From: Rheinheimera texasensis
Lineage (GTDB): Bacteria > Pseudomonadota > Gammaproteobacteria > Enterobacterales > Alteromonadaceae
DNA: 64,000 nucleotides
Direction of reading: 5' to 3'
Assembly (NCBI RefSeq): GCF_964031785.1
Contig: NZ_CAXIRE010000014.1
Coordinates: 59,927 to 123,926, forward strand
Numbering within the stretch: the stretch's first letter is position 1; each line of letters opens with the position of its first letter. Under the pieces are notes generated by a model that saw nothing but the letters and a program-made list of their open reading frames with translations, was not told where the DNA came from and made no database searches. Below are positions 5,141 to 37,298 of this stretch, in pieces. The position numbers were made by a program, and so were the translations under genes.

Positions 5141-5444
5141 ATGGGCACCTTTTGCGGTTTGGTATCAGATACCACTCAGTCTAGTCATTGCTGCGTCAAC
5201 ACGGCGAAAAGGCAGGTAAAGGTTGGGTAAAGCTTTGGGCAACTCTTTGCTTGGCTGAACAATTTTTCGCGGTACTCCTTCAAATTATCAATTTTTCATT
5301 AGGTTTTCGGCGGCATTTTTCTTTAACTTGCGTTAAATATTTACCGCTATATTGCTACAAATATACATTAAAGTTACATTCGTCTTTAAATAACATACTG
5401 ATCATGCTCAGTTTGTGCAGTTTTTCACAGAGGATGTGACATCA

Positions 5445-22042: not shown

Positions 22043-23269
22043 TCATTTCTGCGGTTGTTGTAAAAAGGCCTTTAACTCAGGCGCTATCGTCTGAATATTC
22101 AATAATCCATCTAAGTGGCCCATCTGGCCGGGGATCTGCGACAGCTGGTTGGCTGTGCTGCGGGCGCCGTTAGTATCCAGCGCTTGCTGGCTTTGCTGCG
22201 CCATCAAAGGTGTCAGCAATAAGTCGCCCGCCGCTGGCAACCACAGTACCGGCGCTTTGATGTTTTTGATGGCTTGTTGCCAGTTGTCGCCCATGCCGGC
22301 ACGCCATAACTGCGAAGCGCGCACCAGATACAGCAAATGATTGGCGTCCTGCAGCGCGGCGCGCTGAGTGGCGACTGCCAGTAATTGATCAAGCGCAGTG
22401 AAACTGGCGCGGATATCCTGATGGGCGGCTTTGTCCAAGCGTAAATCCGGGTACTTCTGGTTAAAACCGGCTGGATTTAACGCATCTAAAGTCACCCAGG
22501 CCAGCGCCATGGCAAGCCCTGCAGTGGGTTGTTGCGGTTTGTCGTAATAATCGCCTTGTTGCCAGTGCGGATCGGCTTTAATCGGATAAGCCCAACGTTC
22601 TAACTTGATGGCGCTGTAAGCATCGATATAAGCAGTACCGATCACCGGCACCAGCCGCTGCACCCGCTCTGGGTAACGCTGCGCCCATTCAATCGCCTGA
22701 AAAGAACCCATCGAAGCACCGACTACTGCGTGTAGCTTGTTGATGCCAAGACTGTCTAACAATGCTTTTTGCACTTCAACAAAATCGGTGATGGTCACCA
22801 CCGGAAAGCTCAGGCCATATCTTTTACCTGTCGCCGGATTGATGCTGGCAGGGCCTGTGGTGATGACATGTGGATCATTGGCATTGGCATTGGCATTGAC
22901 CAATGTATCAACGCTAACCACATAAAACTGATTGGTATCAATGGCTTTGCCAGGACCAATGATGGCATCCCAATAACCGGGCGCTGCGTCTGTCGCCTGA
23001 TAACGGCCGGCTGCATGTGAAGTGCCGGAAAAATAATGCGTAATTAAAATCACATTCGATTTGTCAGTATTCAGCTTGCCATAGGCTTCCCAGCCGACTT
23101 GCACTTGCTTTAACTGCGCGCCGTTTTGCGTGATAAAAGTTGGCAGTTCAAAGCGCTGTTTTTGCACCAGCGGCAGTTCGGCGGCCTGACTGGCGGCAGC
23201 GCACAGCAGGCCCAACACCAGACTCGATAAAAACCAGCCGTATTTGATGAAATGTCGCATGCGAAACAA
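22043..23269 (-). CDS. Exported MetX(HTA)-fold alpha/beta hydrolase (E22-like esterase)
   Basis: Signal peptide ending ASQA, LITHYFSGTSHAAG, GYWD..IGPGKAIDT, GASMG Ser, GDLL Asp, GHLDG His. Confidence 0.85.
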   Translation of the reverse strand: MFRMRHFIKYGWFLSSLVLGLLCAAASQAAELPLVQKQRFELPTFITQNGAQLKQVQVGWEAYGKLNTDKSNVILITHYFSGTSHAAGRYQATDAAPGYWDAIIGPGKAIDTNQFYVVSVDTLVNANANANDPHVITTGPASINPATGKRYGLSFPVVTITDFVEVQKALLDSLGINKLHAVVGASMGSFQAIEWAQRYPERVQRLVPVIGTAYIDAYSAIKLERWAYPIKADPHWQQGDYYDKPQQPTAGLAMALAWVTLDALNPAGFNQKYPDLRLDKAAHQDIRASFTALDQLLAVATQRAALQDANHLLYLVRASQLWRAGMGDNWQQAIKNIKAPVLWLPAAGDLLLTPLMAQQSQQALDTNGARSTANQLSQIPGQMGHLDGLLNIQTIAPELKAFLQQPQK

Positions 23270-23286: not shown

Positions 23287-24588
23287 TTAAAACCACTGAA
23301 ACATTAAAATCGCCAGGCCAGTCCCGAGCGCCGGCACTACCACTGTCACTGCCGCGACGGGCCAATAAGCCTGCTGGTGACTTTCGCCACAAATGGCCCG
23401 GATGGTGGTGACCACATAACCGTTATGCGGCAGTGAATCCAAAGCACCGGATGAAATCGCCACCACACGGTGTAACTCTTCCGCGTCGACCCCCCGGTCC
23501 AGATAGACAGGCGCCAGTTCCGGCAGCGCAATGGCCTGACCGCCGGAGGCAGAGCCGGTAAGGCCAGCAATAGCACTGACCGCGACCGCAGCACCCAAGA
23601 GTTCTGGCCCAGGCAGATGGGTCATGGTTTGAACTATGTCGTTAAACGCAGGTGTTAGCTTGGCGACAGCACCAAAACCCACCACAGCCGCCGTGTTGCC
23701 GATGGCCAGCAGAGAGCCCAACACGCCTTCGTTAATGGCTTTATCCAGGCTTTGAATAAAACGCCGGTTCAGCACATACAGCGCCAGCACGCCGCCGCTC
23801 AGCGCTACGATGAGCGCCGCCTGCTGCAGACTATGATGCAGCCAGTTCGATAAACCCAGCACCACCAACAGCGGAATCAGGCCCATTAACGGATGCGGTA
23901 ACTTGCGGTCAGTCAGCTGCGGGTCGCTGTCGCGGCCAATAAAGACTTCACCTTGCGCCACGGCTTTGCGAATCATCTGACTTAACCAGGCATAACCAAA
24001 AGCGGCCATAAAAATCGCCACCACAATACTGACTTCCCAGCCGGCATAAGGCGAAGTGTGCAGATATTGAATAGGGATCCAGTTCTGGATTTCCGGCGAG
24101 CCGGCGGAAGTCATGGTAAAGGTTACTGAACCCAAACCCAGCGCGGCCGGAATAAAACGGCGCGGTAAGTTGGCGTCTTTAAACAAACTGACCGCCATCG
24201 GGTAGGCCGAAAACGCCACGACAAACACCGAGACACCACCATAGGTCAACACGGCACAAGCCAGCACCACAGCGGCAACGGCGTGCGCCCTGCCCAGTTT
24301 TTGCACAATCCATAAAGCGACAGCATCGGCGGCGCCGCTGTGTTCCATCAGTTTGCCGAACAGCGAACCTAACAAAAACATCAGAAACCAGGCGGCGACA
24401 AAACCGGAAAAACCGTTCATGTAAGCGTGGATAAAATCGGTATTACCACTGGCTTGCCAAAACGGAATACCGTTAGTGACAGCGACAAACAAGGCGCACA
24501 AAGGCGCCAAAATAAACAGGTTCAGCCCGCGCATCGTCAGCCAAATCAGCAGGCAGAGCCCGAGCAACAAGCCGGTTAAACTCAGCAT
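23287..24588 (-). CDS. GntP-family H+/monocarboxylate permease
   Basis: About 12 TM segments, GSLFGKLMEHSGAA, LTYGGVS.FVV.F, AGLTGSASGG, LDSLPHNG. Confidence 0.88.
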   Translation of the reverse strand: MLSLTGLLLGLCLLIWLTMRGLNLFILAPLCALFVAVTNGIPFWQASGNTDFIHAYMNGFSGFVAAWFLMFLLGSLFGKLMEHSGAADAVALWIVQKLGRAHAVAAVVLACAVLTYGGVSVFVVAFSAYPMAVSLFKDANLPRRFIPAALGLGSVTFTMTSAGSPEIQNWIPIQYLHTSPYAGWEVSIVVAIFMAAFGYAWLSQMIRKAVAQGEVFIGRDSDPQLTDRKLPHPLMGLIPLLVVLGLSNWLHHSLQQAALIVALSGGVLALYVLNRRFIQSLDKAINEGVLGSLLAIGNTAAVVGFGAVAKLTPAFNDIVQTMTHLPGPELLGAAVAVSAIAGLTGSASGGQAIALPELAPVYLDRGVDAEELHRVVAISSGALDSLPHNGYVVTTIRAICGESHQQAYWPVAAVTVVVPALGTGLAILMFQWF

Positions 24589-24616
24589 AAAAAAGTCCTT
24601 GCTTCGGTTTTTTCTG

Positions 24617-24690
24617 AGTCTGAGCCATCAGGCAGCGTATCTCTATAGTACTAAGGTACAGATTAACATTTCATCAGTTCAGCCTAAAGT
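24617..24690. promoter_or_regulatory. Back-to-back promoters sharing a central activator-type palindrome
   Basis: GTAC-TAAG-GTAC (24648-24659); 25 nt from it on each side lie -10-like hexamers CAGACT (minus, 24622-24617) and TAAAGT (plus, 24685-24690). Confidence 0.65.
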
Positions 24691-24858
24691 AAGGCTATCA
24701 GTCTGAGCGTTTTGTCACTGATTTGCCTGTGCCCCGATTTTTATGACAGCGGGTATTAAGCGGGTTAGTATCACAGCGAAACGCCCGGAGCAACTATAAC
24801 AAGTAACTGAAATAATTCAGAAAGATAAGTGATAGCCGAGATCAGCAGGAGATGCCCG

Positions 24859-27096
24859 ATGGCCCAGAATAACTATAAATTAAACCGTACCACTGACAAT
24901 TCGTTTAAACCGGCGCTGTTGGCGCTGACCATCAGCGCTGTGCTGGCAGGCCCTGTGTATGCACAGGATGCGGCAGCTGGCAAAGATGTCAAAAAAGAAG
25001 AAGCAGCACTGGAAGTGATCCAGGTCACGGCGCGACGCACTGCAGAAAACCTGCAATCGGTGCCGGTGGCGGTGACGTCGATTGGCGCCGAAGATTTAAA
25101 ACAAAAAGGTATCGAAAACCTGACGGCGATTCAACAGCAATCACCGAATACTACGCTGCAGGTGTCGCGCGGCACTAACAGCACTTTAACCGCCTATATT
25201 CGCGGTATTGGTCAGCAAGATCCGCTGTGGGGTTTTGAGCCTGGCGTCGGCATCTACATTGATGATGTGTACATGGCGCGTCCACAAGGCGCGGCAATGG
25301 ATATCTATGATGTCGAGCGCATTGAAGTATTACGCGGCCCGCAAGGTACTTTATACGGCCGTAACACTATCGGTGGCGCGGTGAAATATGTCACTAAGCC
25401 TTTGAGCGGTGAAGACGAGTTTGCTATTCGCGGCACTGTCGGCAGCTACCATCAGCGCGACTTAAAACTGTCTGGCCAGAAAGCCATTACTGACAAGCTG
25501 TCCATCGGTGGAGCCGGCGCATTTTACGACCGTGATGGTTTTGGTAAATACCTCAATACCGGCGCAGAAAACTACAACAAAGACATCATCACTGGTCGTT
25601 TCAGTGCGCAGTATCAGGCGCTGGACAATCTTCGTTTTAACTTTGCCTACGACAAAACCAAAGATGATTCCAATTCCAAAGGCGGCCACCGCTTAACGCC
25701 GAGTTTACTGACCAAAGAAACGCCGCCGTCGAATGTCTACGACTCCAACACCAGTATGCCGGCCACTAACATGGTCCGTACCGAAGGCCACTCACTGACA
25801 ATGGCCTGGGATATCAATGCCGACTGGACGATGAAAGCCATCACTGCCAAGCGTGAAGGCGTCACCGATACCAACATCGACTTTGACTCGACCAAACTGC
25901 CTTCGCTCGATGTGCCGGCGTTTTATGAAGATGAACAAACTTCACACGAATTGCAGTTCCTGTATAACAGTGGCCCGTTGAAGTTTGCGTCAGGCCTGTA
26001 TTCGTTTGAAGGCGACGCCTGTGGTGCCTTTGGTACTGTGCTGGTGTCTGGCCTTGGCGTGACCATCGAAAACGGTGGCTGTGTGCAAACGGATTCTTTT
26101 GCCGGTTATGCGCAGGGTACTTATCAGCTGAATGACCAGTGGTCGTTCACTTTGGGTGGTCGGTATACCGAAGACGACAAAGACGCCAACGTGTATCGTT
26201 ATGTGTATCTTGGCTACAAACTGCCACGCAATACCGCGACCAAAATCGGCACCCAGTCGGATTTTAAAGGCAGTGAAAGTTTCAGCCATTTCTCGCCACG
26301 TGTTGGTTTTGAATATCAGGCCAATGACAGCATGATGGTGTATGGCTCTTATACTGACGGCTTTAAATCCGGTGGTTTTGATATGCGTGGTAACCAGTCG
26401 GTCAACCCAAATGCCGGCGATCCGTACCAGCCAGAAACGGTCGATACTTATGAGCTGGGTCTGAAAAGCGAATGGCTGGACCGCCGGCTGCGTTTAAATG
26501 CCGCAGTGTTTGCCTCAGCTTATGATGATATGCAAGTGACAGTGCAACGTGCGGTGAATAACACTGTGGCATCACAAGTACTGAACGCCGCCAGCGCTGA
26601 TATCAATGGTATTGAGCTGGAAGCCACGGCGGTGGCCAGCGATGCCCTGCAATTTAACCTGATTGTTGGTTATACCGACGCCAAGTTTAACGAAGTGCTG
26701 TTTTATGATGCCGTGACTAAAACCACGTCAGACGTGTCTGGGTTATGGTCCTTTGCCAACACGCCAGAACTGACCGCGACTTTAGGCGGCAAATACACAG
26801 TGGCGATGTATGGCGGCGAACTGGTGCTGAATGCGAACTTGTCCCACCGCAGCGAAACGCAGATTTTTGAGCTGCCATCGATGCTGGACTACGGCGGTTA
26901 CACGTTGTTTAACGCCGGCGCCACCTGGTATTCCGCTGATGGCCACTGGGACGTGTCACTGCAGGGCCGTAACTTAGGCGATAAGATCACCCGCATCGCC
27001 GGTTACAACTTCCCGCTGCTGGCGGCCGAACAAACCATCACGGCCTATTATGGTGACCCAAGAACAGTGAGTTTGTCACTGGGTTACCGGTTCTGA
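24859..27096 (+). CDS. TonB-dependent receptor
   Basis: AGGAG RBS, signal peptide, TonB box EVIQVTARR, RIEVLRGPQGTLYGRNTIGGA, terminal GYRF. Confidence 0.95.
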   Translation: MAQNNYKLNRTTDNSFKPALLALTISAVLAGPVYAQDAAAGKDVKKEEAALEVIQVTARRTAENLQSVPVAVTSIGAEDLKQKGIENLTAIQQQSPNTTLQVSRGTNSTLTAYIRGIGQQDPLWGFEPGVGIYIDDVYMARPQGAAMDIYDVERIEVLRGPQGTLYGRNTIGGAVKYVTKPLSGEDEFAIRGTVGSYHQRDLKLSGQKAITDKLSIGGAGAFYDRDGFGKYLNTGAENYNKDIITGRFSAQYQALDNLRFNFAYDKTKDDSNSKGGHRLTPSLLTKETPPSNVYDSNTSMPATNMVRTEGHSLTMAWDINADWTMKAITAKREGVTDTNIDFDSTKLPSLDVPAFYEDEQTSHELQFLYNSGPLKFASGLYSFEGDACGAFGTVLVSGLGVTIENGGCVQTDSFAGYAQGTYQLNDQWSFTLGGRYTEDDKDANVYRYVYLGYKLPRNTATKIGTQSDFKGSESFSHFSPRVGFEYQANDSMMVYGSYTDGFKSGGFDMRGNQSVNPNAGDPYQPETVDTYELGLKSEWLDRRLRLNAAVFASAYDDMQVTVQRAVNNTVASQVLNAASADINGIELEATAVASDALQFNLIVGYTDAKFNEVLFYDAVTKTTSDVSGLWSFANTPELTATLGGKYTVAMYGGELVLNANLSHRSETQIFELPSMLDYGGYTLFNAGATWYSADGHWDVSLQGRNLGDKITRIAGYNFPLLAAEQTITAYYGDPRTVSLSLGYRF

Positions 27097-27250
27097 TGAC
27101 TAGTTAAAGAAGAAGAGTTGCTGGCGCGGGGCTGTTCAGGCGCTGTGCCTGCCAACTGCGCGACGCCATCAAAGCCGGTGTGAGTGTAATGCTTGCACCG
27201 GCTTGTCTGCTCCCGCATCATGGTTGTTCTGCTGTCTGGACCTGTGACTT

Positions 27251-27898
27251 ATGATTGCCATTATTGCTGATGACCACCCGTTATTCCGTATTGCTTTATC
27301 GCAGGCACTGCAGACGATTCTTGGCCTTGAGGCCAGCCTGTATCAGGCGCACAGCATGGCGCAGTTGTGGCCTTTATTGCGCGAACATCCGGATACCCAA
27401 TTAATTCTGCTCGATCTGAAATTGCCGGATGCTGAAGGTTTTGCCGGTTTAACCGCGCTGCGTACTGAATATCCGGATATTTCTATTCTGATGGTGTCGG
27501 CGATTGAAGACCCGGCCGTGATTAAACAAGCGTTGCAATTAGGCGCTGCCGCTTATCTGCCCAAATCGGCGCCGCTGGACGTGTTAACCGAAGCGGTGGA
27601 CGCTGTGCTGGCGGGGGACACCTGGTTGCCGGCGGATTTACAACAAAGTGTGGCGCAGGCGCAGGATTTGATTGACGCCGAATTTGCCGGGCGGCTCGAG
27701 CAGCTGACGCCGCAACAATTTCGTGTGTTAAAAATGATTGCCGATGGTTTGCTGAATAAACAAATCGCTTATGAAATGAATGTGCAGGAAACCACCGTCA
27801 AGCAGCATGTGTCGGCGATTTTGCGCAAACTCAATGTCAATAATCGTACCCTGGCCGGGATCTTATTTGAAAAACTGAAACTTCCGGATACCCTGTAG
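27251..27898 (+). CDS. NarL/LuxR-family response regulator, CrbR/ErdR-like
   Basis: ADDHPLFR, LLDL phosphoacceptor, PKS; HTH LTPQQFRVL.MIADGLLNKQIAYE..V.ETTVK.HVSAILRKL. Confidence 0.9.
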   Translation: MIAIIADDHPLFRIALSQALQTILGLEASLYQAHSMAQLWPLLREHPDTQLILLDLKLPDAEGFAGLTALRTEYPDISILMVSAIEDPAVIKQALQLGAAAYLPKSAPLDVLTEAVDAVLAGDTWLPADLQQSVAQAQDLIDAEFAGRLEQLTPQQFRVLKMIADGLLNKQIAYEMNVQETTVKQHVSAILRKLNVNNRTLAGILFEKLKLPDTL

Positions 27899-27938
27899 CC
27901 TCTAACTGCCAGTCTTGAGTCTTCCGGGAGAGCGCCAG

Positions 27939-28517
27939 ATGCGCCGAATCACTTTGTTTGTCCTGTCTTGTTCCACTATGTTCAGTATTTTTCCCAGCCA
28001 TGCTACTCAGCTGCAGCCGCAAACCGGTCACTGGCGCAGTCAGCATCAGGTGCTGGTCAATGGCCAGGATATTCTGCAGCAGATGAAAGCACTGCAACAA
28101 CAAATGCTGGCGGCGGTGCCGGCGGAACAACGGGCTTTAGTCGCCGGTATGATGCCGAAAAAAGACTTAAGTACGGCGCAGGAATGTTTAACTGCGGCTG
28201 AAGTCGCGTTGTTAAAAACGCCGGAGCAATGGCTGGCCAGAGCCAAACAGCAGTTACCGCGTTGCCAGTTACAACTGACCGGCAGCACGACCAATTCGGT
28301 GTCAGTCAAAGGCCAGTGTCAGGATCAGGGCGGCTACACCGGCTCGTTGCAGGGCACTGTCACATTAAAAACACCGCAATGGATGCAGATGAACATGCAG
28401 GGCACCGGCCAGTACAAAATGCCGCTGCCGGGCCAGGCACAAAACGGTGACGTGCAGTTTAAACTCGATAGTGACTCGCGTTGGCAAAGTGCCAGCTGCC
28501 CGGCCGGTATGCGGTAA
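27939..28517 (+). CDS. Secreted DUF3617-like protein
   Basis: Signal peptide, TGHW, ECLT, four spaced cysteines ending RWQSASC. Confidence 0.6.
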   Translation: MRRITLFVLSCSTMFSIFPSHATQLQPQTGHWRSQHQVLVNGQDILQQMKALQQQMLAAVPAEQRALVAGMMPKKDLSTAQECLTAAEVALLKTPEQWLARAKQQLPRCQLQLTGSTTNSVSVKGQCQDQGGYTGSLQGTVTLKTPQWMQMNMQGTGQYKMPLPGQAQNGDVQFKLDSDSRWQSASCPAGMR

Positions 28518-28606
28518 GCCGGCGGGACTCGTCTGTTAACCTGATGTTGTGATTGAAATGTGTTTCCTGCATGCTGAAATCTTTCGCAGCAATACAGGAC
28601 AATCAG

Positions 28607-29833
28607 ATGACAACAGCAACATCAGGCAGCGCCGGCCAGCCCAGCTGGCAAAAAACACCGCAAACCGGTTTACAGGTCAATTCAGTGGCAGTCAGTCCGG
28701 ATGGTCAACTGACCGTTGGCGGCACCTCCAGCGAATTTGGCAGCGGGCAGTTTAATTTTTATGGCTTTGACGCGACTGGCCAGCAACTCTGGTCGGTGCC
28801 GGTTACCGCCGCCAACGTCACGCAGGGCATTTTCTGGGTCGCCGTCAGTGACGATAAACGTTTTGCCGCCTGTGGTGGCGAAACCAGTAAAACCTGTGGT
28901 TTTTTGTGTATCCTCGATGCCAGCACTGGCAGTATTCTGTTTCAGGATAACAACTTACCTGCCCGCGTCAATCAACTGACTTTCAGCAGTGACGGCACTT
29001 TGCTGCTGGCGGATTTCCAGCACGAATTACGCTTGTATCACTATGCCAGCGGCAGCACCTTGGTGCCGGTCTGGTCACTGAGTGACAGCTTGGCGCTTTC
29101 GGCCGACTTTTCCAGTTACAGCGCTGTGCTGGCGCCAAACGGCGGCCGGGTTTGGGTCGGCGCTATCAACTACAACGTGAAACCGGTCTACACCGGGCTG
29201 GTGCAGCAGATTGCGCTGGATAACGGCAAATTCGGCGCAGCAACCAGTTATCAGCAAGCACAAGGGGTGATGCGGGTGGTGACGACCACAGATGGCACTT
29301 ATGCCGCCGCGGCGTTACACGATGGCAGCTGCGCGTTTTTTCAGGCGGTACAGCCCAGCACAGCTTTTGTCTATAAACCGGCGCTGACCGGGCTTAATAT
29401 CGCCTATGCCATCGCCATCACTGAAACGCCAGCCAAAGAACTGGTGATAGTGGTCGGTGCTAACCAAGGCGAAGCCGGGGTGTTGTACCGGGTGGATGCA
29501 GAGCAAACAGCGTCTGAGATCGCCAACTATCCCATCTGGGGGCCAGTGCTGAAATGGAGCAAACCGGTGCAATATGCGGTGAATCCGGGCGTGACTTTAG
29601 ACGCTGCAGCAACCCTGGTCAGTGTCACTGACGGTAAACCGGATGAAAGCTCCGGCGGCAGCGATCAAAAGGAATCACCGGGTAACTTTTATCTGTTCGA
29701 CGCTTGCTCTGGGCAGCAACTGTGGCAATATGGCACCAAGCTGATGAACTGGCCAATGATGCTGACGCCGGACGGTAAAACCGCAGTGGGTGGCAGTGAT
29801 GATGGCAGTATTTATTACTGGAATTTGCAGTAA
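28607..29833 (+). CDS. Beta-propeller (WD40/PQQ-like) protein without signal peptide
   Basis: Repeated VAVSPDG / VAVSDD / TFSSDG / LTPDG blades, QQLWS and QQLWQY, GSDDGSIYYW. Confidence 0.7.
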   Translation: MTTATSGSAGQPSWQKTPQTGLQVNSVAVSPDGQLTVGGTSSEFGSGQFNFYGFDATGQQLWSVPVTAANVTQGIFWVAVSDDKRFAACGGETSKTCGFLCILDASTGSILFQDNNLPARVNQLTFSSDGTLLLADFQHELRLYHYASGSTLVPVWSLSDSLALSADFSSYSAVLAPNGGRVWVGAINYNVKPVYTGLVQQIALDNGKFGAATSYQQAQGVMRVVTTTDGTYAAAALHDGSCAFFQAVQPSTAFVYKPALTGLNIAYAIAITETPAKELVIVVGANQGEAGVLYRVDAEQTASEIANYPIWGPVLKWSKPVQYAVNPGVTLDAAATLVSVTDGKPDESSGGSDQKESPGNFYLFDACSGQQLWQYGTKLMNWPMMLTPDGKTAVGGSDDGSIYYWNLQ

Positions 29834-31303
29834 GTGAAACCTGAAGGTCTGGCCCAAGCGCCGCTGTTTGACCGCCAACGTTGGCAAGACCGGCTGCAGC
29901 AATCCTGGTTGCTGCGCAACCTGTTGTTATTGCTGCTGTGGCTGCTGGTGTTTGAGATCGGCTGGCTGGTGGAATATACCCATCACGCCAGTGTCTGGTA
30001 TCCGGTCGCGGGCCTGACTTTCGCATCGTTGTTATTACTGGGTTTTTCTGTGTTACCGGCCTTGTTGACAGGCTGCGTGCTTATCACTTTTTACACCGCC
30101 CGCCACTACAATATTCAGCTGCCGCCGTGGCAAATTCTCGAGGCCGGTTTGTTATTTGGCCTGGCGCATATTTTACCTTATGCCGTCGGTGCTATTGCCT
30201 TGCGCACGCTGGCCAAACGCGGCGCCCGCGATATTAGCCGGATCATCGTATCCTTCCTGGTGATTGCAGCCGTCAGTTCATTTTGTGCCACCTGGCTGGT
30301 GCTGCCGACTTTGGTGATCACTGACATGATGACGGAAGCTGAGATCGCCTCAACCTGGCTGCCGTTCTGGATTGGTGATATGGCCGGTGTCATGGTGCTG
30401 GCGCCGTTTTTTGTTGGCCTGCTGAGTCGGGTTTTACCTGGCGCGCTGTTTCGTCTGACCGATATGGCGGGCCTGCAACAGCAAAAGTTCAGCTCGCGTT
30501 ATCTGTTGAAACTGTTGCTGAACGGTCTGTTACTGACTGCATGCATGCTGCTGGCGAAAGTGACAGATTCACCAAACAGCGCTTTTGCGATTTTTTTCCT
30601 GGTGATCCCGCATATGTGGATCGCCTGTTCCGAATCGGCATTACTTAATGTCAGTAGTGTGGCGCTGTCGAGTTTCCTGATTGCCTTTTGGGTGCATCTG
30701 TTTGATTTGATGGACTATGTGATGGTCTATCAGTTTGCGATCAACGTCATTGCCGCGAACACCTTATTTGGCCTCGCCATTCCGACTTTATTGGCAGATA
30801 ACCTGCAACTGCGCAAAGTGGCTTTTACTGACAGCCTGACACAAGTGGCGTCCCGTGACCGGCTGGAGCAAAGGGCAACGCTTGAGATCAGCCGTAGCCG
30901 GCACGAACAGCGGCCTTTGTCGCTGTTGGTGTTTGATATCGATTATTTCAAAAAAATTAATGATGAGTTTGGTCACCATGTTGGCGATCAGGCGCTGCAG
31001 CAACTGGCGCGTTTAGCCCAGCTGTCGCTGCGACCGACGGATTTGCTTGGCCGTTTTGGCGGCGATGAATTTGTCGTGTTATTGCCACAAACCGCGCAGC
31101 CGGCCGCTTTGTTGATTGCCGAGCGGATTATCAGCGAATTACGCCAGGTCTACATCTGTGATGTCCATCCGCTGACCGCCAGTTTTGGCGTCGCGCAATT
31201 ACAGCCAGACGAAGATTACGAACGGCTGTTCCGCCGCGCCGACCGGGCTTTGTATCAGGCCAAGCTGGCCGGGCGCAATCAGGCTTGTGTCGCGGCCGAC
31301 TAA
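29834..31303 (+). CDS. MASE1-GGDEF diguanylate cyclase
   Basis: Multi-TM N-terminus with WYPVAG and WIGDMAG, TDSLT, DIDYFKKINDEFGH..GD, RPTD I-site, intact GGDEF. Confidence 0.9.
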   Translation: MKPEGLAQAPLFDRQRWQDRLQQSWLLRNLLLLLLWLLVFEIGWLVEYTHHASVWYPVAGLTFASLLLLGFSVLPALLTGCVLITFYTARHYNIQLPPWQILEAGLLFGLAHILPYAVGAIALRTLAKRGARDISRIIVSFLVIAAVSSFCATWLVLPTLVITDMMTEAEIASTWLPFWIGDMAGVMVLAPFFVGLLSRVLPGALFRLTDMAGLQQQKFSSRYLLKLLLNGLLLTACMLLAKVTDSPNSAFAIFFLVIPHMWIACSESALLNVSSVALSSFLIAFWVHLFDLMDYVMVYQFAINVIAANTLFGLAIPTLLADNLQLRKVAFTDSLTQVASRDRLEQRATLEISRSRHEQRPLSLLVFDIDYFKKINDEFGHHVGDQALQQLARLAQLSLRPTDLLGRFGGDEFVVLLPQTAQPAALLIAERIISELRQVYICDVHPLTASFGVAQLQPDEDYERLFRRADRALYQAKLAGRNQACVAAD

Positions 31304-31320
31304 AGATTTAACCCCGGCGC

Positions 31321-34300
31321 TCAGCGCAGCAGGCGTTGCAGCAACCGCTTCAGATTGGCCGGTTTGAGTGGTTTCAGCATAAAGTGAAAGCCGTTATTCA
31401 GTGCATGGTCGCGGGTTTGTTGTTGTTGATCGGCGGAATGGATTAACACCGGCACCTGCAACGCATAATGCTGCTGCAGTTGCATCGCCACTTCGACACC
31501 GGTCGCGCCCTGGTCCAGATGATAATCAAACAACAATAAATCCACCGGATGACCTTCGCTGAGCCAATGCAGCGCCTGAGAAGGCTGCTGCGCCACCAGT
31601 ACCTGACAATCCCAGCTTCTGAGCAATGCCGCGACCGCGCCGGATAATTGCGGGTCGTTATCGAGCAATAAGATTGTTTTACCGCGGAAACTGACCGACT
31701 GCTCACGTGGTTGCAGCGCAGGTGCTGCAGTCGCGCCCGATGCACAGACCGGCACTGTCACGGCAAAACAGCTGCCTTTGCCTGGTTCGGAGTGCAAAGT
31801 CAGCGCATGCTGCAGCAAATCGCTGATGCGCTGGCTGATGGCAAGACCAATGCCAAGGCCCTGATTATTCGCTTCTTTACCCTGCTGAAATTCCTGAAAA
31901 ATCCGTTGTTGTTCATCCGGACTGATGCCGACGCCGGTATCCCAGACTTCAATCCGCACCGCCGGCAGCCCTTGCCAGTGGCAGCGCCGGCAGCCCAACA
32001 GGATTTTGCCTTGTGGGGTGTACCGCAGGGCGTTGGCGACCAGATTCTGCACCACACGGCGTAGCAGACGGCTGTCAGTATCCACCCAAAGCCGGCTTGG
32101 CCGGTAGCGGAAACGAATCGGTTTACCGGTTGAGATTAAGCCGGCTTCGCGGGCGATTTGGTCCAGCAGGCTGGTCATTGCTACCGGCGCTTTTTGCGCT
32201 TTAATCACGCCGGCATCCAGTTTGGTCAGTTCCAGAATACCGGCCAGGAGTTCTTCAGCGGAATTTAACGACGCCGCTAAATCTTTCGCCAGTTGCTGCA
32301 CCTGGCCATCGCTGCTTTTCTCGCGGATCAGCCCGCAAAATAATGCGGCGGCATTAAAGGGTTGCAGCAAATCGTGGCTGGCTGCAGCAAAAAAACGGTT
32401 TTTGCTGGCGGTTTGTTCTTCCAGCTGTTGTTTGGCGGCGGCCAATTGTTGATTAAGTTGCTCCAGCTCGGCGGTGCGGCTCATCACCCGTTGCTCCAGC
32501 GTGCTGTTACTGGCTTCGAGCTGTTGTTGCACCTCGATAAAAGAGCTGACATCGCTGTAGGTTGTAACAAAACCACCGCCCGGCAGCGGATGGCCCTGCA
32601 TCTCAAACACCCGGCCGTCGCGCTGGCGGCGCTGAAAACGATAACTGCTGCCCTGGCGTAAAAAATTCAGCCGTTTTTCTACTTCGGCGCTGATTTGCGT
32701 GGCATCGGGTAGGGCACTGTCATGGAACCAGCCGCGTTCGGCGTTATAACGAATTAAATCCGCGACCGGCCGGCCTACTTCAATCAGGCCAGGCGGATAA
32801 GCAAACATCTGCAGATAACGTTGGTTCCAGGCGATCAGGCGTAAATCGGCGTCCACCACGCTGATGCCCATACTGATATTGTCGATAGTGGCGCGCAGCA
32901 GCGCCTGATTAAACAGATAGACCTGACTGGCTTCGTCGACAAAACGCGCGACAGATTCCAGCGGCAGCTGACTGTTTTTGCCGGCGGCGTTCAGTAACAA
33001 CCGCATCGAAGCACCGCCAACCACAGCTGCCAGCGTACGCTCTGTGCTTTGCTGCAGCGCTTGTGGCGCGCGCGTCTCCAGCTGAGGTGAAACCGATTTA
33101 AACTGACGCTGCAGCAATAAGCGCGCTTCACGCTCGCCGGCAAAACGCCGCACCAGCAGATAACAATCCTGTACTGTCAGCTGTGGCGCCACCTGTTGCG
33201 GTTTTGACTGGCTCTGGCGGAAAAAACGTGCACTTTCCAGATACTCCGTCAGCCGGGTGTGGCTGAGCTGACTGACCAGCAACAGCAGCAAGGTATTCAT
33301 GCTCAGACTGACCACCACCCCGAGGCTTATCAGATCAAACTGGCCACCGAGCAAGGCATTGGGCGCCAACGCCTGCCAGCCAAAAGGCCCCTGGCTCAGC
33401 CAGTCCCAGCGGATTAAACCGGCGCGGCTTAATTCCGGTAACAACAGAATGTAGGCCCACAAACTGGCGCCGCAGAGTAAACCGGCCAAAGCGCCCTGAC
33501 GATTGACCCGGCGGTTCAGCAGGCCAAAAATCAGCGCCGGTGCCAGCTGGGCAATTAACGCAAAGGCCATCAGGCCAAGCTGAGCCAGACCGGTTTCAGT
33601 GCCAATCAATAAGTAGTACAGATAGCCCAGCGTCAGCACGCTTAACATCGATAAACGGCGCAGCGTCACCATGCGGATCCAGGGTTTGCCGTCGGCCGGT
33701 TTCTGCTGCTGGCGGTATATCAGTGGCGTCAGTAAGTCGTTGGTGATCATAATGCCAAGCACCACAGTGGCGACTATCACCATACTGGTGGCAGCAGAAA
33801 AACCACCTAAGTAAGCCAGCAGTGCCATATCGGTGCGATTCGCCGACAGCGGCAGCTGCAACACCACTAAATCGATGCTGGCGCTCTGGCCCAGTAACAA
33901 AGTACCGGCCAGTGCCACCGGCAATGTAAACAGGCTCATCAGCAGTAAATAGCCGGGGAAGATCCAACGCGCATAGCGCAGATGACCCAAATGCTGGATC
34001 TCAACAAAACTGACGTGAAACTGGCGCGGCAGGCATAAAGTCGCGACAAAACCGAGCAAGACGTGGATCCAATACACTGACCAGGGCGCGCCCTGACTTT
34101 GCAGCTGCTGGACGTCGGCTGAGACGGCTGCCTTGGCAAAAATATCGCTAAAACCATCAAACAGCCCAAACACGACAAAAAATCCGACGGCCAGCAGTGC
34201 TAATAATTTCACCAGCGATTCAAAGGCAATAGCCGTCATCAGGCCGGGATTGGGCTGATGCGCTTTGGCGCTGCGACCGACAAATAACATGGCAAATATC

Positions 34301-34833
34301 GCCAGCCATAAGCTGACGTAAAGCCCGGTGTCCTGATACCAGGGCCCGCCGCTGCTGCTGCCGACCAAGGCGTTGATACTGGTCGACACCGCCTGTAGCT
34401 GCAAAGCGATATAAGGAATAACCGCCATCAACACGATGAGTGTGGTGATCACGGCTAATAAGCGGGAATGCCCATAGCGGGTGGCGATAAAGTCGGCGAC
34501 TGAAGTGATACGTAAACGCCGGCAGACAATAGCGATGCGGCTAATCAGGCCAAACGCGAACCAGAACAACAACAAAGAACCGATATAAGTCGGCGGGATC
34601 CACCAGCCATTGACTGCGGCCTGCGCGGTCACGCCATAAAAGGCCCAGCTGGTACAGTAGATGGCGAGGGCAAAACTAAACACCCAGGGCGCGAGCGGAT
34701 GGCGGCCAGTCAGACGCCGGCCGAGCAGCCCGACGCTGTACAGTACCGCCAGATACAGCAGCGACAGCACGGCTATGCTGCCAATGCCAATGCTGCCCTG
34801 ACTCAGAATCATTTCAGAATTTACCGCATTCAC
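31321..34833 (-). CDS. SLC5 symporter-fused hybrid histidine kinase (CrbS/MxtR-like)
   Basis: 13-TM SLC5 region (AIYCTSWAFYG, PYIALQL, LPRQFHV, GGFSAATSMVIV), PAS, SHDLLQP His box, DTGVGI / GLGIGL, C-terminal REC (LFDYHLD); alternative start 34812. Confidence 0.92.
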   Translation of the reverse strand: MNAVNSEMILSQGSIGIGSIAVLSLLYLAVLYSVGLLGRRLTGRHPLAPWVFSFALAIYCTSWAFYGVTAQAAVNGWWIPPTYIGSLLLFWFAFGLISRIAIVCRRLRITSVADFIATRYGHSRLLAVITTLIVLMAVIPYIALQLQAVSTSINALVGSSSGGPWYQDTGLYVSLWLAIFAMLFVGRSAKAHQPNPGLMTAIAFESLVKLLALLAVGFFVVFGLFDGFSDIFAKAAVSADVQQLQSQGAPWSVYWIHVLLGFVATLCLPRQFHVSFVEIQHLGHLRYARWIFPGYLLLMSLFTLPVALAGTLLLGQSASIDLVVLQLPLSANRTDMALLAYLGGFSAATSMVIVATVVLGIMITNDLLTPLIYRQQQKPADGKPWIRMVTLRRLSMLSVLTLGYLYYLLIGTETGLAQLGLMAFALIAQLAPALIFGLLNRRVNRQGALAGLLCGASLWAYILLLPELSRAGLIRWDWLSQGPFGWQALAPNALLGGQFDLISLGVVVSLSMNTLLLLLVSQLSHTRLTEYLESARFFRQSQSKPQQVAPQLTVQDCYLLVRRFAGEREARLLLQRQFKSVSPQLETRAPQALQQSTERTLAAVVGGASMRLLLNAAGKNSQLPLESVARFVDEASQVYLFNQALLRATIDNISMGISVVDADLRLIAWNQRYLQMFAYPPGLIEVGRPVADLIRYNAERGWFHDSALPDATQISAEVEKRLNFLRQGSSYRFQRRQRDGRVFEMQGHPLPGGGFVTTYSDVSSFIEVQQQLEASNSTLEQRVMSRTAELEQLNQQLAAAKQQLEEQTASKNRFFAAASHDLLQPFNAAALFCGLIREKSSDGQVQQLAKDLAASLNSAEELLAGILELTKLDAGVIKAQKAPVAMTSLLDQIAREAGLISTGKPIRFRYRPSRLWVDTDSRLLRRVVQNLVANALRYTPQGKILLGCRRCHWQGLPAVRIEVWDTGVGISPDEQQRIFQEFQQGKEANNQGLGIGLAISQRISDLLQHALTLHSEPGKGSCFAVTVPVCASGATAAPALQPREQSVSFRGKTILLLDNDPQLSGAVAALLRSWDCQVLVAQQPSQALHWLSEGHPVDLLLFDYHLDQGATGVEVAMQLQQHYALQVPVLIHSADQQQQTRDHALNNGFHFMLKPLKPANLKRLLQRLLR

Positions 34834-34880
34834 CGCGAAGCCTTTGATTGTGCCTCAGATTTTGTTAGCAGGAAAGGGCG

Positions 34881-35633
34881 CTAGCGCGCCGTCCAGCCAC
34901 CGTCGAGCACCAGCGTTTGCGCCGTGATATGGCGGGCCGCGGCTGTGGTCAGAAACACTGCGGTTGCGGCAATTTCATCGACGCCAATAAAGGCTTTTTG
35001 TGGCATTGGCGCCAGCATGATTTTTTCGATGACTTCGGTTTCGCTGAGCTGATGTTCTTTGCACTGAGCAGCAATTTGCGCATCTACCAATGGCGTACGC
35101 ACATAAGCCGGGCAGATAGTATTGATAGTGAAATCAATATCAGCGTTCTCCAGTGCTACCACTTTACTAAAGCCAAGCAAACCGTGTTTGGCCGCGACAT
35201 AAGCCGACTTAAACGGCGAGGCGACTAAGGCGTGAATAGAGCCGATGTTCACAATCCGGCCAAAACCGCGGCTGCGCATGCCTGGCAATAAGGCTTTACT
35301 CAGCATCGCCGGGCCGGTCAGCATCACCTGTAACAGCTGCTGCCATTTGTGTTCCGGAAATTCTTCCAGGCGCGCCACGTGCTGGATACCGGCGTTATTG
35401 ACCAATACATCCACCTGGCCTGCGGCTGCAGCGGTATTTTCAATACTGTCCTGAGAGGTTAAATCCAGCAGCAACGCGCTGGCTTTGGCGCCGCTGGCGA
35501 TCAGTTCTGCCGCTTTTTGTTCGGCGACGGCCAGATTAATATCGGCCAGGATCACTTCGTCGCCCTGAGCGGCATACGCCTGTGCCACCGCAAAGCCAAT
35601 ACCGCCGCTGCCGCCTGTGATCAGTACCCGCAT
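34881..35633 (-). CDS. bdhA: D-3-hydroxybutyrate dehydrogenase
   Basis: TGGSGGIG, NNAGIQHV, SPFKSAYVAAKHG, ICPAYVRTPLVDAQI, MPQKAF, DGGWTA: HBDH subfamily signatures. Confidence 0.9.
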   Translation of the reverse strand: MRVLITGGSGGIGFAVAQAYAAQGDEVILADINLAVAEQKAAELIASGAKASALLLDLTSQDSIENTAAAAGQVDVLVNNAGIQHVARLEEFPEHKWQQLLQVMLTGPAMLSKALLPGMRSRGFGRIVNIGSIHALVASPFKSAYVAAKHGLLGFSKVVALENADIDFTINTICPAYVRTPLVDAQIAAQCKEHQLSETEVIEKIMLAPMPQKAFIGVDEIAATAVFLTTAAARHITAQTLVLDGGWTAR

Positions 35634-35666
35634 AACACCCTCTGCTGTTGTTGTGTGCTTTGCTGC

Positions 35667-35713
35667 AGGGTAGAAGTTTGCGGTCAGGCGGTAAACGGTA
35701 CTTTAGTGCTATA
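35667..35713 (-). promoter_or_regulatory. bdhA promoter with the shared palindrome
   Basis: Minus strand TATA-GCACTAAAGTAC-cg-TTTACC-17 nt-TACCCT. Confidence 0.65.
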
Positions 35714-36047
35714 CCGCTGAATGGTTGGCAACAGTCGGTGAAAATAACAACAGCAGTGCAATTAACTCAGACTCTTCACGCATGTAAATTCAAATTAGAT
35801 AGCAGAGAAACTCAGACACAGCCGTTCATAGCGCTGAGCGCTCAGAAAACCGCACAAGACTTTGCCAGAACCCATATCTATGATATGTTTCGGCACATAA
35901 TAAAAAAATTATCTTGTGCTTCCCACGCAGTTTAGACCGTAAAAAACTCTTGATAACAATGTGTTGTGCCATTGTTTCGCGTTAAGTCGGAAAAAGTCCT
36001 GCTCAGTTGCACTTCATTCTGTAGACCTGTCACGTAAGGAATTCTGC

Positions 36048-37298
36048 ATGCAGACTTCAACCGCATTGATCACCAACGACGCCGTCGTGCTCGGCCTGTT
36101 GGCGCTTATTTTAGGCTTTGTGTTTCATACCAGTGCCAGTAACCATCCGTTCTGGCAGAAGTTTTATAAATACGTGCCTTCGGTATTGTTGTGTTATTTC
36201 ATTCCGTCGTTGTTTAACACTTTCGGCATTATCGATGGCGATACCTCAAAACTCTATGAGATGGCGTCGCGTTATCTGTTACCAGTCTGCTTAGTGCTTT
36301 TGACACTGAGCATTGATTTTAAAGCTATTTTAGGACTCGGCCCTAAGGCACTGGCGTTGTTTCTGACCGGTACCGTCGGTGTTGTGCTCGGTGGCCCCAT
36401 TGCGCTTGCGACTGTGGGTACTTTCTTCCCTGAGCAAATGGGCGGTGAAGGCGCTGATGCGGTCTGGCGTGGTATGGCAACTATCGCTGGTAGCTGGATC
36501 GGCGGCAGTGCCAACCAGGCGGCGATGAAAGAAGTGTTTCAGCCGAGTGGCGAAATCTTCTCGGTGATGATCACTGTCGATGTAGTCGTCGCAAATTGCT
36601 GGATGGCGATCCTGTTGTGGATGGCGGCCAATGCGTCCCGTATTGATCAGGCCAATGGCGCTGATACCCGTGCCATTGAAGCGTTAAAAAGCAAAATCGA
36701 AAAGTACCAGGCGGAAAATTCGCGTAATCCGTCTACGTCAGATTTGATTAAATTACTGGCTGTTGGTTTTGGTTTGGCCGGTGTTGCACATTGGTTGTCA
36801 GACTATATCGTGCCATTTATCAAAACCCATGCGCCGGAACTGGCGATGTACAGCCTGACCAGCAGTTTCTTCTGGATTGTGGTGCTTGCGACGACTTTTG
36901 GTTTGTTATTGTCCTTTACCAAAGCGCGGGAACTGGAATCAGTCGGCGCGTCTAAAGTCGGCTCTGTGCTGGTGTATGTGCTGGTCGCCAGTATCGGGAT
37001 GCATATGGATATCACCGCAGTGGTGGATTATCCGGTGATGTTCCTGGCCGGTGTGGTTTGGATTTCGTTCCACGGTTTACTGATGTTTGGCATGTTACGC
37101 CTGTTAAAAGCACCGGCGTTTTATATGGCTGTCGGTAGTCAGTCGAATATCGGTGGTGCAGCGTCAGCTCCTATTGTTGCAGCAGCTTTCCATCCGGCGT
37201 TAGCGCCTGTTGGTGTGTTGCTGGCGGTATTAGGTTATGCGCTTGGCACTTATGGCGGTTACCTGTCAGCATTAATTATGCAGTCGATTGCGCCTTAA
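36048..37298 (+). CDS. DUF819-family membrane protein
   Basis: AAGGA RBS, about 11 TM, GSWIGGSANQAAM, SQSNIGGAASAPIVAAAF, LGYALGTY. Confidence 0.85.
   Translation: MQTSTALITNDAVVLGLLALILGFVFHTSASNHPFWQKFYKYVPSVLLCYFIPSLFNTFGIIDGDTSKLYEMASRYLLPVCLVLLTLSIDFKAILGLGPKALALFLTGTVGVVLGGPIALATVGTFFPEQMGGEGADAVWRGMATIAGSWIGGSANQAAMKEVFQPSGEIFSVMITVDVVVANCWMAILLWMAANASRIDQANGADTRAIEALKSKIEKYQAENSRNPSTSDLIKLLAVGFGLAGVAHWLSDYIVPFIKTHAPELAMYSLTSSFFWIVVLATTFGLLLSFTKARELESVGASKVGSVLVYVLVASIGMHMDITAVVDYPVMFLAGVVWISFHGLLMFGMLRLLKAPAFYMAVGSQSNIGGAASAPIVAAAFHPALAPVGVLLAVLGYALGTYGGYLSALIMQSIAP

Follow-up and report, generated by a model that had tools for sequence, protein, structure and literature searches.

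The closest described relatives of the system reported here are the acetate regulators CrbS and CrbR (MxtR-ErdR) of Pseudomonas and Vibrio. Activation by CrbR needs the ACTU motif, GAC-N4-GTC, located at -52 to -36 (Sepulveda & Lupas 2017; PMC5715377). In EMSA, ErdR binds GACNNNNGTC and accepts TAC in one half-site (bioRxiv 10.64898/2026.09.07.749794). For the related regulator NarL, a cryo-EM activation complex at the yeaR promoter places the dimer at -43.5, with Lys188, Val189 and Lys192 contacting bases (PMC10853779), and on Ti plasmids the TraR tra box I lies between divergent traCDG and traAFB (PMC3907764). Other sensor kinases of the SLC5/STAC type belong to the pyruvate system RpuS/RpuR and to CbrA/CbrB (PMC9100948); in the literature that we searched, we found none dedicated to 3-hydroxybutyrate (3HB).

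We analysed a 64,000-nucleotide stretch of Rheinheimera texasensis DNA (the window), in which two boxes precede genes for the use of polyhydroxybutyrate (PHB) and 3HB. The first lies between divergent transcription units. On the minus strand, a GntP/CitMHS-like permease and putative 3HB importer (23,287-24,588; Pfam GntP_permease) is the first gene of a permease-esterase operon. Of 36 other Rheinheimera genomes, 33 have this permease, and versions of lower identity exist in three further families of the order. The esterase gene lies 17 nt downstream of the permease gene (22,043-23,269, minus strand); its product is of the secreted, MetX-like E22 family (NF005262, 559 bits, cut-off 450), carries an N-terminal signal peptide (...LLCAAASQA/AELP) and may hydrolyse 3HB oligomers. 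On the plus strand stands a TonB-dependent receptor (TBDR; 24,859-27,096) with plug and beta-barrel domains, which is syntenic in all related loci; its probable start is ATG 24,859, preceded by AGGAG, in a reading frame that opens at GTG 24,829. The next gene (27,251-27,898, plus strand) encodes a NarL/LuxR-type response regulator with REC and GerE domains, a paralog of CrbR/ErdR and the proposed box-binding activator. No terminator-like site was found between the two genes (27,096-27,251), and they are probably co-transcribed.

The second box precedes bdhA, encoding 3-hydroxybutyrate dehydrogenase (34,881-35,633, minus strand; TIGR01963, 324.9 bits, cut-off 307). Forty-seven nucleotides downstream of bdhA follows the gene for a CrbS-like hybrid sensor kinase (31,321-34,833, minus strand) with an SLC5/SSF transporter domain, PAS_7, HisKA, HATPase and REC; a STAC linker was not separately detected in the domain search. 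Over its full length the kinase is 37% identical to the acs-linked CrbS paralog on another contig (C24). A fourth box-bearing promoter, outside the window at C21, belongs to an extracellular PHB depolymerase (NF050059, 357 bits); its box stands 25 nt from the -10 and is conserved in two orientations.

We verified both 16-mers at the places and on the strands given by the first-pass annotation. TATAGTACTAAGGTAC occupies 24,644-24,659 (plus strand; core GTAC-TAAG-GTAC, 24,648-24,659), and TATAGCACTAAAGTAC occupies 35,713-35,698 (minus strand; core GCAC-TAAA-GTAC, 35,709-35,698); they are identical at 14 of 16 positions. Taken alone, this match is only suggestive of a shared site: of 1000 mononucleotide shuffles, 29 gave one as good between the two intergenic regions. 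Exact matches to the pattern GYACTAARGTAC in the 4.69-Mb genome are limited to these two boxes; as about two matches are expected by chance, it is their placement rather than their number that is notable. A genome-wide scan for the box returned 46 matches against 60 in the control, that is, no enrichment elsewhere. We judge the shared box to be beyond chance because it is conserved across genomes.

In 27 distinct permease/TBDR spacers from Rheinheimera, 17 of 17 box columns were invariant (mean of the other columns, 0.66). At bdhA, mean conservation over 30 genomes was 0.97 for the box and 0.49 for the other columns, and the block TAGCACTAAAGTAcCGTT was kept in these genomes amid unalignable sequence and also across four genera. 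The module and its boxes retain the same synteny in Rheinheimera, Alkalimonas, Alishewanella and Arsukibacterium, and a syntenic module with boxes is also present in three other GTDB families. About 12 further named genera have ATAGTAC-N4-GTAC, in which the half-sites are fixed and the 4-bp spacer is free. The pattern GYAC-TAAR-GTAC first read from the two copies captured a real box but was too narrow. TAAR falls outside the recognition code, because other genera show no fixed spacer sequence, and GCAC also occurs as the right half-site. As aligned, the box is an inverted repeat, (ATA)G[T/C]AC-N4-G[T/C]AC, with asymmetric flanks, ATA being conserved at just one end. Depending on the promoter, the box faces either way with respect to transcription, which is compatible with a symmetric dimer.

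The boxes are held at a fixed distance from predicted promoters. The bdhA promoter, GCACTAAAGTAC-CG-TTTACC-17 nt-TACCCT, has its -35 at 35,695-35,690 and its -10 at 35,672-35,667 on the minus strand, with a predicted +1 near 35,660. For the TBDR, TTAACA (24,663-24,668, plus strand) and TAAAGT (24,685-24,690) are separated by 16 nt and predict a +1 near 24,697; for the permease, a weak -35, TAGAGA (24,645-24,640, minus strand), and CAGACT (24,622-24,617) are separated by 17 nt and predict a +1 near 24,610. The 12-bp core ends 2 bp before a weak -35 and, as had been claimed for all three promoters, exactly 25 nt before the -10-like hexamer: 25 nt lie between the core end at 24,659 and TAAAGT, and as many between the core start at 24,648 and the minus-strand CAGACT. 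Orthologous upstream regions, scanned for the motif, contained a conserved box at this fixed distance, which was ungapped throughout the alignments (27 and 30 genomes). The TAnnnT hexamer of bdhA kept its distance in the 30 genomes. TTAAC and TARAGT of the TBDR promoter were conserved in every aligned genome, and of 28 distant loci 26 have a TAnnnT hexamer there at a spacing of exactly 25 nt. AGTCTG, the permease -10 read on the other strand, was invariant in 27 genomes, and other genera have CACAAT or AACAAT in its position. From the aligned sequences, both boxes are real, deeply conserved DNA sites just upstream of the predicted -35 elements of PHB/3HB genes.

The suggestion that a single box is centred between back-to-back promoters also held: its centre, 24,653.5, lies 34 bp from the centre of either -10, so that the box is symmetric between them. 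Here, in two other genomes (G053 and G051) and in about 12 genera, 25 nt separate the core from a conserved -10-like hexamer on both sides; in G053 the permease hexamer keeps this spacing likewise, and across those genera the divergent operons of permease and TBDR-regulator keep their symmetric 25/25-nt layout around the box. In two-box genomes each promoter has its own box at 25 nt, with AGTCTG exactly 25 nt from the permease-proximal one. By their alignment, these relatives show that each promoter would require a box at 25 nt, and the single box is probably the ancestral layout. With +1 placed 7 nt beyond the conserved -10, these predicted start sites put the core at -49 to -38, centred at -43.5. 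Of the class II geometry originally assigned, the box does adjoin the predicted -35; its calculated position would fit the 'non-canonical class II' site of NarL at -43.5, not the CRP-type -41.5.

Which protein would occupy the box? The locus regulator combines PF00072 with PF00196, and its best NCBIfam match is ErdR, at 229.5 bits against a cut-off of 390; that cut-off seems Pseudomonas-specific, because the acs-linked CrbR of this genome also misses it (199 bits). None of the database orthologs carrying a source name has a functional one. A canonical CrbS/CrbR-acs locus coexists on contig C24, where this separate paralogous pair serves acs and the DUF4212-SSS genes; the locus regulator is 42-44% identical to its CrbR. 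The acs promoter, AGACTAATGTCT-AA-TTTGCC-17-TAGAAC, is conserved in 30 genomes with an ACTU box, GAC-N4-GTC, in the same geometry, and the CrbR core given in the first-pass annotation does match the published ACTU motif. At the 3HB locus, GAC-N4-GTC was not found, all orthologs having GTA rather than GTC. Across 30 genomes, only GAC/GTC boxes occur at acs and only [T/C]AC/GTA boxes at the 3HB genes, both half-sites included.

The recognition helices differ along with the boxes. The locus regulator has QETT[VI]KQHVSAILRKL, in which the Q of KQH, invariant in 80 of 80 loci, aligns with NarL Val189; CrbR has Ala there, the acs-linked regulator always reading TVKAH versus TVKQH. In Thalassotalea and Colwellia, the regulator pairs Asn, not Gln, with the same half-sites, so one residue does not strictly set the code. 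In alphaproteobacterial relatives with TVKAH, both the target genes and the box are absent. Strict synteny, joint presence and absence, and this helix difference tracking box type support the earlier attribution of the box to the 27,251 regulator. The link is correlative; the neighbouring CrbR-like regulator is the protein most likely to bind the boxes, and a CrbR-box specificity variant that this regulator would bind at a class II-like -43.5 is well supported by the comparisons.

Since the assignment is correlative, another conserved, unlinked transcription factor might bind the box, with the two-component system controlling something else, such as the GGDEF protein or only the TBDR. We regard this as unlikely, given that the box occurs only beside this module, without genome-wide enrichment, and is similar to the site demonstrated for the nearest characterised paralog of the regulator. 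Moreover, the regulator gene invariably has a box upstream, also where the two directly adjoin, and box and regulator are lost together: two Rheinheimera genomes that have retained acs and CrbR, G004 and G028, are without regulator and box and also without permease, bdhA and depolymerase.

Scarcely more credible, and if anything slightly less so, is that the canonical acetate CrbR binds the box, alone or with the locus regulator, and that the locus is an acetate or short-chain-acid regulon. The box does resemble ACTU in length, spacer preference and position, and because ErdR tolerates TAC in one half-site some cross-talk is possible. However, the acs and 3HB boxes are strictly distinct in the 30 genomes, the box always accompanies a regulator of the Q/N type, and genomes that have acs and CrbR without the locus regulator possess neither the box nor its target genes.

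That the regulator represses from the box, or forms a roadblock common to two promoters, is improbable to a still greater degree. A site against the -35 could in principle block RNA polymerase, and the TBDR promoter, recovered with its TTAACA -35 by an independent promoter scan, has fairly good hexamers (TTAACA-16-TAAAGT, 9/12). In contrast, the permease, bdhA and depolymerase promoters have a poor -35 or -10, as is typical of activator dependence. The calculated position is that of the activating sites of CrbR (-52 to -36), NarL (-43.5) and TraR (about -45), and the paralogs CrbR and ErdR are activators. Finally, that two AT-rich promoter stretches resemble each other by chance, for which the shuffles (about 3% reach 14/16) and the expected number of exact matches might speak, is effectively refuted by the invariance of the box over dozens of genomes and some 16 genera with its geometry fixed.

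We thus return to activation by the 27,251 regulator and consider it likely that the sites act as operators in a small regulon dedicated to scavenging PHB breakdown products. Against this reading stand the weak -10 hexamers (CAGACT, TACCCT, CAAGCT) and the bdhA and permease promoters, which scored below the threshold of the generic promoter scan. What we observed is sequence, geometry, conservation and co-occurrence; binding, activation, signal and start sites are what we infer. The regulon would comprise the extracellular PHB depolymerase, the TBDR, the secreted esterase, the permease and 3-hydroxybutyrate dehydrogenase. The transporter-kinase may sense 3HB or a close relative and phosphorylate the regulator, whose dimer on the box would recruit RNA polymerase, as CrbR/ErdR does at ACTU and NarL at -43.5 of yeaR. 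One dimer at 24,648-24,659, midway, could serve both promoters, as TraR does from the tra box between traA and traC. The regulator gene follows that of the TBDR and the kinase gene follows bdhA, so that the system probably reinforces its own expression. The half-site, GTAC versus GAC, would insulate it from acetate CrbS/CrbR, as probably would Gln versus Ala at the NarL-Val189 position.

We also lean, with less assurance, towards a broader reading in which a third functional class of SLC5-kinase, after acetate CrbS/R and pyruvate RpuS/R, senses 3HB or PHB oligomers, occurs widely in Rheinheimera, Alteromonas, Colwellia and Pseudoalteromonas-type bacteria, is insulated by its own operator code (GTAC-N4-GTAC with Gln/Asn versus the acetate GAC-N4-GTC with Ala), and drives two divergent promoters at once with one dimer at -43.5. 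If so, the NarL/LuxR family would contain a minimal specificity switch of natural origin, and a biosensor for 3HB/PHB would be ready to use, with box, regulator and kinase as its candidate parts. The analysis defines an operator, a promoter architecture and a likely regulon for a previously uncharacterised CrbR paralog, and ties it to the way in which bacteria use PHB, an important storage polymer in nature and a bioplastic. The boxes of the two paralogous regulators share their geometry and differ only in the half-site, a difference that tracks one base-contacting residue; within one cell they offer a clean natural test of how cross-talk between duplicated two-component systems is avoided. 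The box may also serve as a simple marker for PHB-scavenging loci in marine and freshwater Gammaproteobacteria.

Compared with known systems, RpuS/RpuR and CbrA/CbrB share with the locus a transporter-like sensor domain for one small carboxylate or amino acid and control of its uptake genes, and differ in ligands, regulators (CbrB is sigma-54-dependent) and operators. TraR likewise uses a single LuxR-type dimer site, some 45 nt upstream, for two divergent class II-type promoters; unlike the locus regulator, it is an acyl-homoserine-lactone receptor rather than a phosphorylated response regulator, binds an 18-bp box and controls unrelated genes. NarL, of the same family and fold, is the closest solved relative and binds at the position calculated for our box, but on 7-2-7 heptamers (TACYYMT) instead of a compact repeat of 12 bp whose halves are 4 bp apart, and its signal and kinase type are unrelated. 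Closest is CrbS-CrbR. Both systems pair an SLC5-transporter-fused hybrid kinase with a NarL/LuxR-type regulator and control the uptake and first catabolic steps of a short-chain carboxylate. Both operators are imperfect inverted repeats with a 4-bp central spacing, often TAAR; that of the locus, like ACTU, would stand directly upstream of a sigma-70 -35, in a conserved predicted order of box, 2 nt, -35, 16-17 nt and -10; at acs in this genome the spacing is identical (2 and 17). In contrast, the half-sites are GAC in ACTU and G[T/C]AC in both halves here, CrbR has Ala where the locus regulator has Gln (or Asn), and acs and actP are replaced as targets by the PHB depolymerase, TBDR, esterase, permease and bdhA.

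The two matching 16-mers, TATAGTACTAAGGTAC at 24644-24659 (+) and TATAGCACTAAAGTAC at 35713-35698 (-), are identical at 14 of 16 positions, and the promoter geometry described for them in the first-pass annotation proved exact: the 12-bp core ends 25 nt before a -10-like hexamer at three promoters. That of bdhA (3-hydroxybutyrate dehydrogenase, 34881-35633, -) reads core-CG-TTTACC-17-TACCCT. The core at 24648-24659 faces TAAAGT on the side of the TonB-dependent receptor (TBDR) gene (24859-27096, +) and, on the opposite strand, CAGACT on the side of a GntP-like permease gene (23287-24588, -), and at 25 nt from each it is thus equidistant from two back-to-back -10 elements. On the TBDR side TTAACA, with a 16-nt spacer, makes a better -35, and a generic promoter scan returned the same element. 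A secreted E22-type MetX-like esterase with a signal peptide is encoded at 22043-23269 (-), a NarL/LuxR response regulator whose top family match is ErdR/CrbR, under that model's cut-off, at 27251-27898 (+), and a CrbS-like hybrid kinase with an SLC5 transporter domain at 31321-34833 (-). The locus of R. texasensis DSM 17496 is almost identical.

Divergent from bdhA lies a DUF819 membrane protein gene (35961-37298), whose synteny extends to many Rheinheimera genomes. The promoter-like site of this gene, TTGCCA-16-TATGTT at 35862-35889, lies ~150 bp from the bdhA box, which it therefore probably does not share. The TBDR leader measures ~160 nt in the window's clade (24697-24859) and ~35-60 nt in other Rheinheimera species, which lack a ~110-nt insertion (about 24700-24830). 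Within this insertion is another sigma-70-like site, ATGACA-17-TAGTAT (24743-24771); the long leader matched no Rfam family of structured RNA. Variable cargo occupies 27915-31303 (+): its three genes, for a DUF3617 lipoprotein-like protein, a WD40 beta-propeller and a MASE1-GGDEF diguanylate cyclase, occur together only in the window's clade, and elsewhere GGDEF alone, or nothing, separates the regulator and kinase genes. Should the cargo share a transcript with the TBDR and regulator genes, 3-hydroxybutyrate (3HB) sensing would feed c-di-GMP signalling.

By themselves, the two window sites are barely beyond chance. The degenerate 12-mer has two copies in the genome, where about 2 per genome are expected, and 29 of 1000 shuffles produced a match of 14/16 between the spacers. 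The comparative evidence is decisive. Across the permease/TBDR spacer of 27 Rheinheimera genomes (permease identity 78-100%), the block ATAGTACTAAGGTACAG-TTAAC..CCTARAGT is invariant, as is AGTCTG on the permease side, and the stretch between the two varies freely; 17/17 box columns are invariant, and the remaining columns average 0.66. Upstream of bdhA in 30 genomes, TAGCACTAAAGTAcCGTT and TAnnnT stand at an ungapped 25-nt distance amid unalignable surroundings, with a conservation of 0.97 for the box versus 0.49 elsewhere. More distant Rheinheimera species possess a pair of boxes at a distance of 82 bp, and each box has its own -10 at 25 nt; the lone shared box in the window's clade would thus stand in for both. 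In our judgement the box is almost certainly a functional promoter-proximal operator.

Tandem repeats adjoin the box in some relatives, with CATCTAGCAC repeated three to four times just upstream of it at bdhA (loci L050, L053 and L054) and CCACTGTACTAAT three times at a depolymerase gene (L228). These repeats contain half-sites and could either offer the regulator extra half-sites to bind or have arisen by replication slippage.

The regulator-centred loci of Alkalimonas, Alishewanella and Arsukibacterium have both boxes and the same synteny. Three further GTDB families of the order keep the 25/25 geometry with box variants, namely GTACTAAGGTAC, common to the permease and the regulator gene itself, TAGTAC-TATA-GTAC-TG-GTTAAT-17-TAGAGT at bdhA, and CTAC-TATC-GTAC. 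A broader survey took in Neptunicella, Alteromonas, Bowmanella, Aliiglaciecola, Lacimicrobium, Aestuariibacter, Aliidiomarina, Pseudohongiella, Pseudoalteromonas, Thalassotalea and Colwellia. Here the permease, esterase, depolymerase and bdhA genes usually run in that order to one side of ATAGTAC-N4-GTAC, and the TBDR and regulator genes to the other, with a kinase gene in convergent orientation after them. The single box centred between divergent promoters is thus a conserved architecture and probably the ancestral layout. TAnnnT lies exactly 25 nt downstream in 26 of 28 loci (chance ~1.6% per site), and the permease-side hexamer is CACAAT or AACAAT in most. Of the GYAC-TAAR-GTAC pattern first proposed for the operator, the GTAC half-sites are constant in these genera, whereas the TAAR spacer is a local feature, the four base pairs changing to TATG, TTAA, GTTA, GATG, TAAG or TATA.

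A third architecture, distinct from the lone box and from the pair 82 bp apart, occurs in the permease/TBDR gap of Alteromonas indica and A. lipotrueiana (L234 and L252, about 5395-5450), where boxes 30 bp apart, start to start, differ in spacer (GTACGTTAGTAC, plus GTACTAACGTAC or GTACTAAGGTAC). In the family to which genome G053 belongs (L193, 13570-15010), 3-oxoacid CoA-transferase (sco) genes precede bdhA in one operon; the box variant TAACACTAAAGTAG further upstream (about L193:15005) would add acetoacetate activation to the regulon.

Genome-wide pattern searches did not extend the regulon. Neither GYACTAARGTAC at up to one mismatch (58 matches versus 47 with the reversed-pattern control) nor TAGYACTAARGTAC at up to two (46 versus 60) was enriched; the matches lay in coding sequence without common flanks, and no further strict site was found in the genome. 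All seven genomic copies of GCACTAAAGCAC are coding and share no context, hence reflect chance or codon bias. A hybrid site, TAGTACTAAAGTCG, upstream of adk (contig C15:209498) has no functional link and is probably fortuitous, and additional boxes in five loci (L080, L084, L085, L198 and L199) were rejected, as all fall within coding sequence. Orthologs led to a different site. In several Rheinheimera species the gene for an extracellular short-chain-length PHA depolymerase (NF050059, 357 bits) is preceded by an additional box, once more at 25 nt from a -10. The window genome's own copy (contig C21, ATG at 386541) is preceded by GTACCAAAGCAC-TA-TTGACG-17-CAAGCT, which has two mismatches and is kept in 10 genomes of its clade. 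This is the only further real site in the window genome; it implies that the right half-site may be GCAC and that either box orientation is possible. Judging from the annotations, the gene set would form a poly-3-hydroxybutyrate (PHB)/3HB pathway: PHB would be depolymerised outside the cell, the oligomers carried across the outer membrane by the TBDR and hydrolysed by the secreted esterase, and the resulting 3HB taken up via the permease and oxidised by BdhA.

Which protein binds the box? CrbR/ErdR requires the acetate operator ACTU, an inverted repeat with the GAC-N4-GTC core also named in the first-pass annotation. This operator lies at -52..-36, directly against the RpoD -35 (PMC5715377), and CrbR/ErdR binds it in EMSA (bioRxiv 10.64898/2026.09.07.749794). 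The window genome has a canonical acetate locus outside the window (contig C24:438678-453140), comprising an operon for DUF4212 and an ActP-like symporter with the box TTCGACTAAAGTCGGG at 440577-440592, CrbS (in an ORF containing 440848-444243), and acs followed by CrbR. The acs promoter, AGACTAATGTCT-AA-TTTGCC-17-TAGAAC, in which AGACTAATGTCT is the ACTU box, equals that of bdhA in geometry and is kept in 30 genomes. Upstream of acs, about 50-90 nt farther out, is a second ACTU-like element (CAATTAGCC.TTAGTCG), weaker and also conserved. A third ErdR-like regulator, with a TVKAH helix and 168.7 bits on the ErdR model, occurs at contig C7:50385-52992 beside a soluble hybrid kinase without the SLC5 domain, whose alignment with the locus kinase is confined to the C-terminal kinase part (38% identity).

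Synteny is strict: a box-controlled promoter invariably precedes the regulator gene (27251-27898 in the window), which directly adjoins the box in genomes without the TBDR gene. Two Rheinheimera genomes (G004 and G028) lack regulator, permease, bdhA, depolymerase and box together, yet retain acs and its regulator. The recognition helix of the locus regulator reads QETT[V/I]KQHVSAILRKL, with the Q of VKQH invariant in 80/80 loci and present in 118/120 database orthologs, versus SEATVKAH.TAIFRKL in the acs-linked CrbR of 30/30 genomes. This Q/A position aligns with Val189 of NarL, which makes base-specific contacts together with Lys188 and Lys192 (PMC10853779). In the broader survey, Q-type regulators, with Asn in place of Q in Thalassotalea and Colwellia, accompany the module and GTAC boxes, and Ala-type alphaproteobacterial relatives have neither module nor boxes. 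A homolog search with the regulator returned orthologs only, those named in their sources bearing generic response-regulator names. The ErdR model, run across the class in search of a bona fide Pseudomonas ErdR, matched 6 of 151 sampled genomes, none above cut-off, and the comparison was made with acs-linked paralogs instead. Synteny, joint loss, the paralog's known site and the helix difference thus point to the locus regulator, the binder originally proposed, and we consider it quite probable that it binds the box and activates.

Assuming that transcription begins 7 nt past the -10, the core would span -49 to -38, centred at -43.5. The NarL dimer on yeaR occupies -43.5, termed 'non-canonical class II' (PMC10853779), and the calculated centre is close to those of ACTU (about -44) and of TraR class II boxes (about -45; PMC3907764). 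The box is too compact to be a NarL 7-2-7 site itself. Geometry and family knowledge suggest class II-like activation, and the weak hexamers TAGAGA/CAGACT, TTTACC/TACCCT and CAAGCT would fit activator dependence. A single dyad amid divergent class II promoters has been documented before: TraR tra box I occupies such a place between traCDG and traAFB (PMC3907764). As no terminator-like site was found between the TBDR and regulator genes or between the bdhA and kinase genes, positive autoregulation of regulator and kinase is likely.

In conclusion, the original interpretation is supported by the sequence comparisons, its probable binder included, once the spacer is taken as local and a GCAC half-site is allowed for. 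The Cupriavidus PHB two-component system is not homologous, and the literature searched describes neither a 3HB- or PHB-dedicated SLC5 kinase system nor the box. The system is widespread, solid and easily testable, and introduces no new principle. It would function like CrbS/CrbR-ACTU yet is distinct from it, since the locus has neither the GAC/GTC half-site nor the acs/actP regulon that define that system, and a true CrbS/CrbR-ACTU coexists in the same genome.
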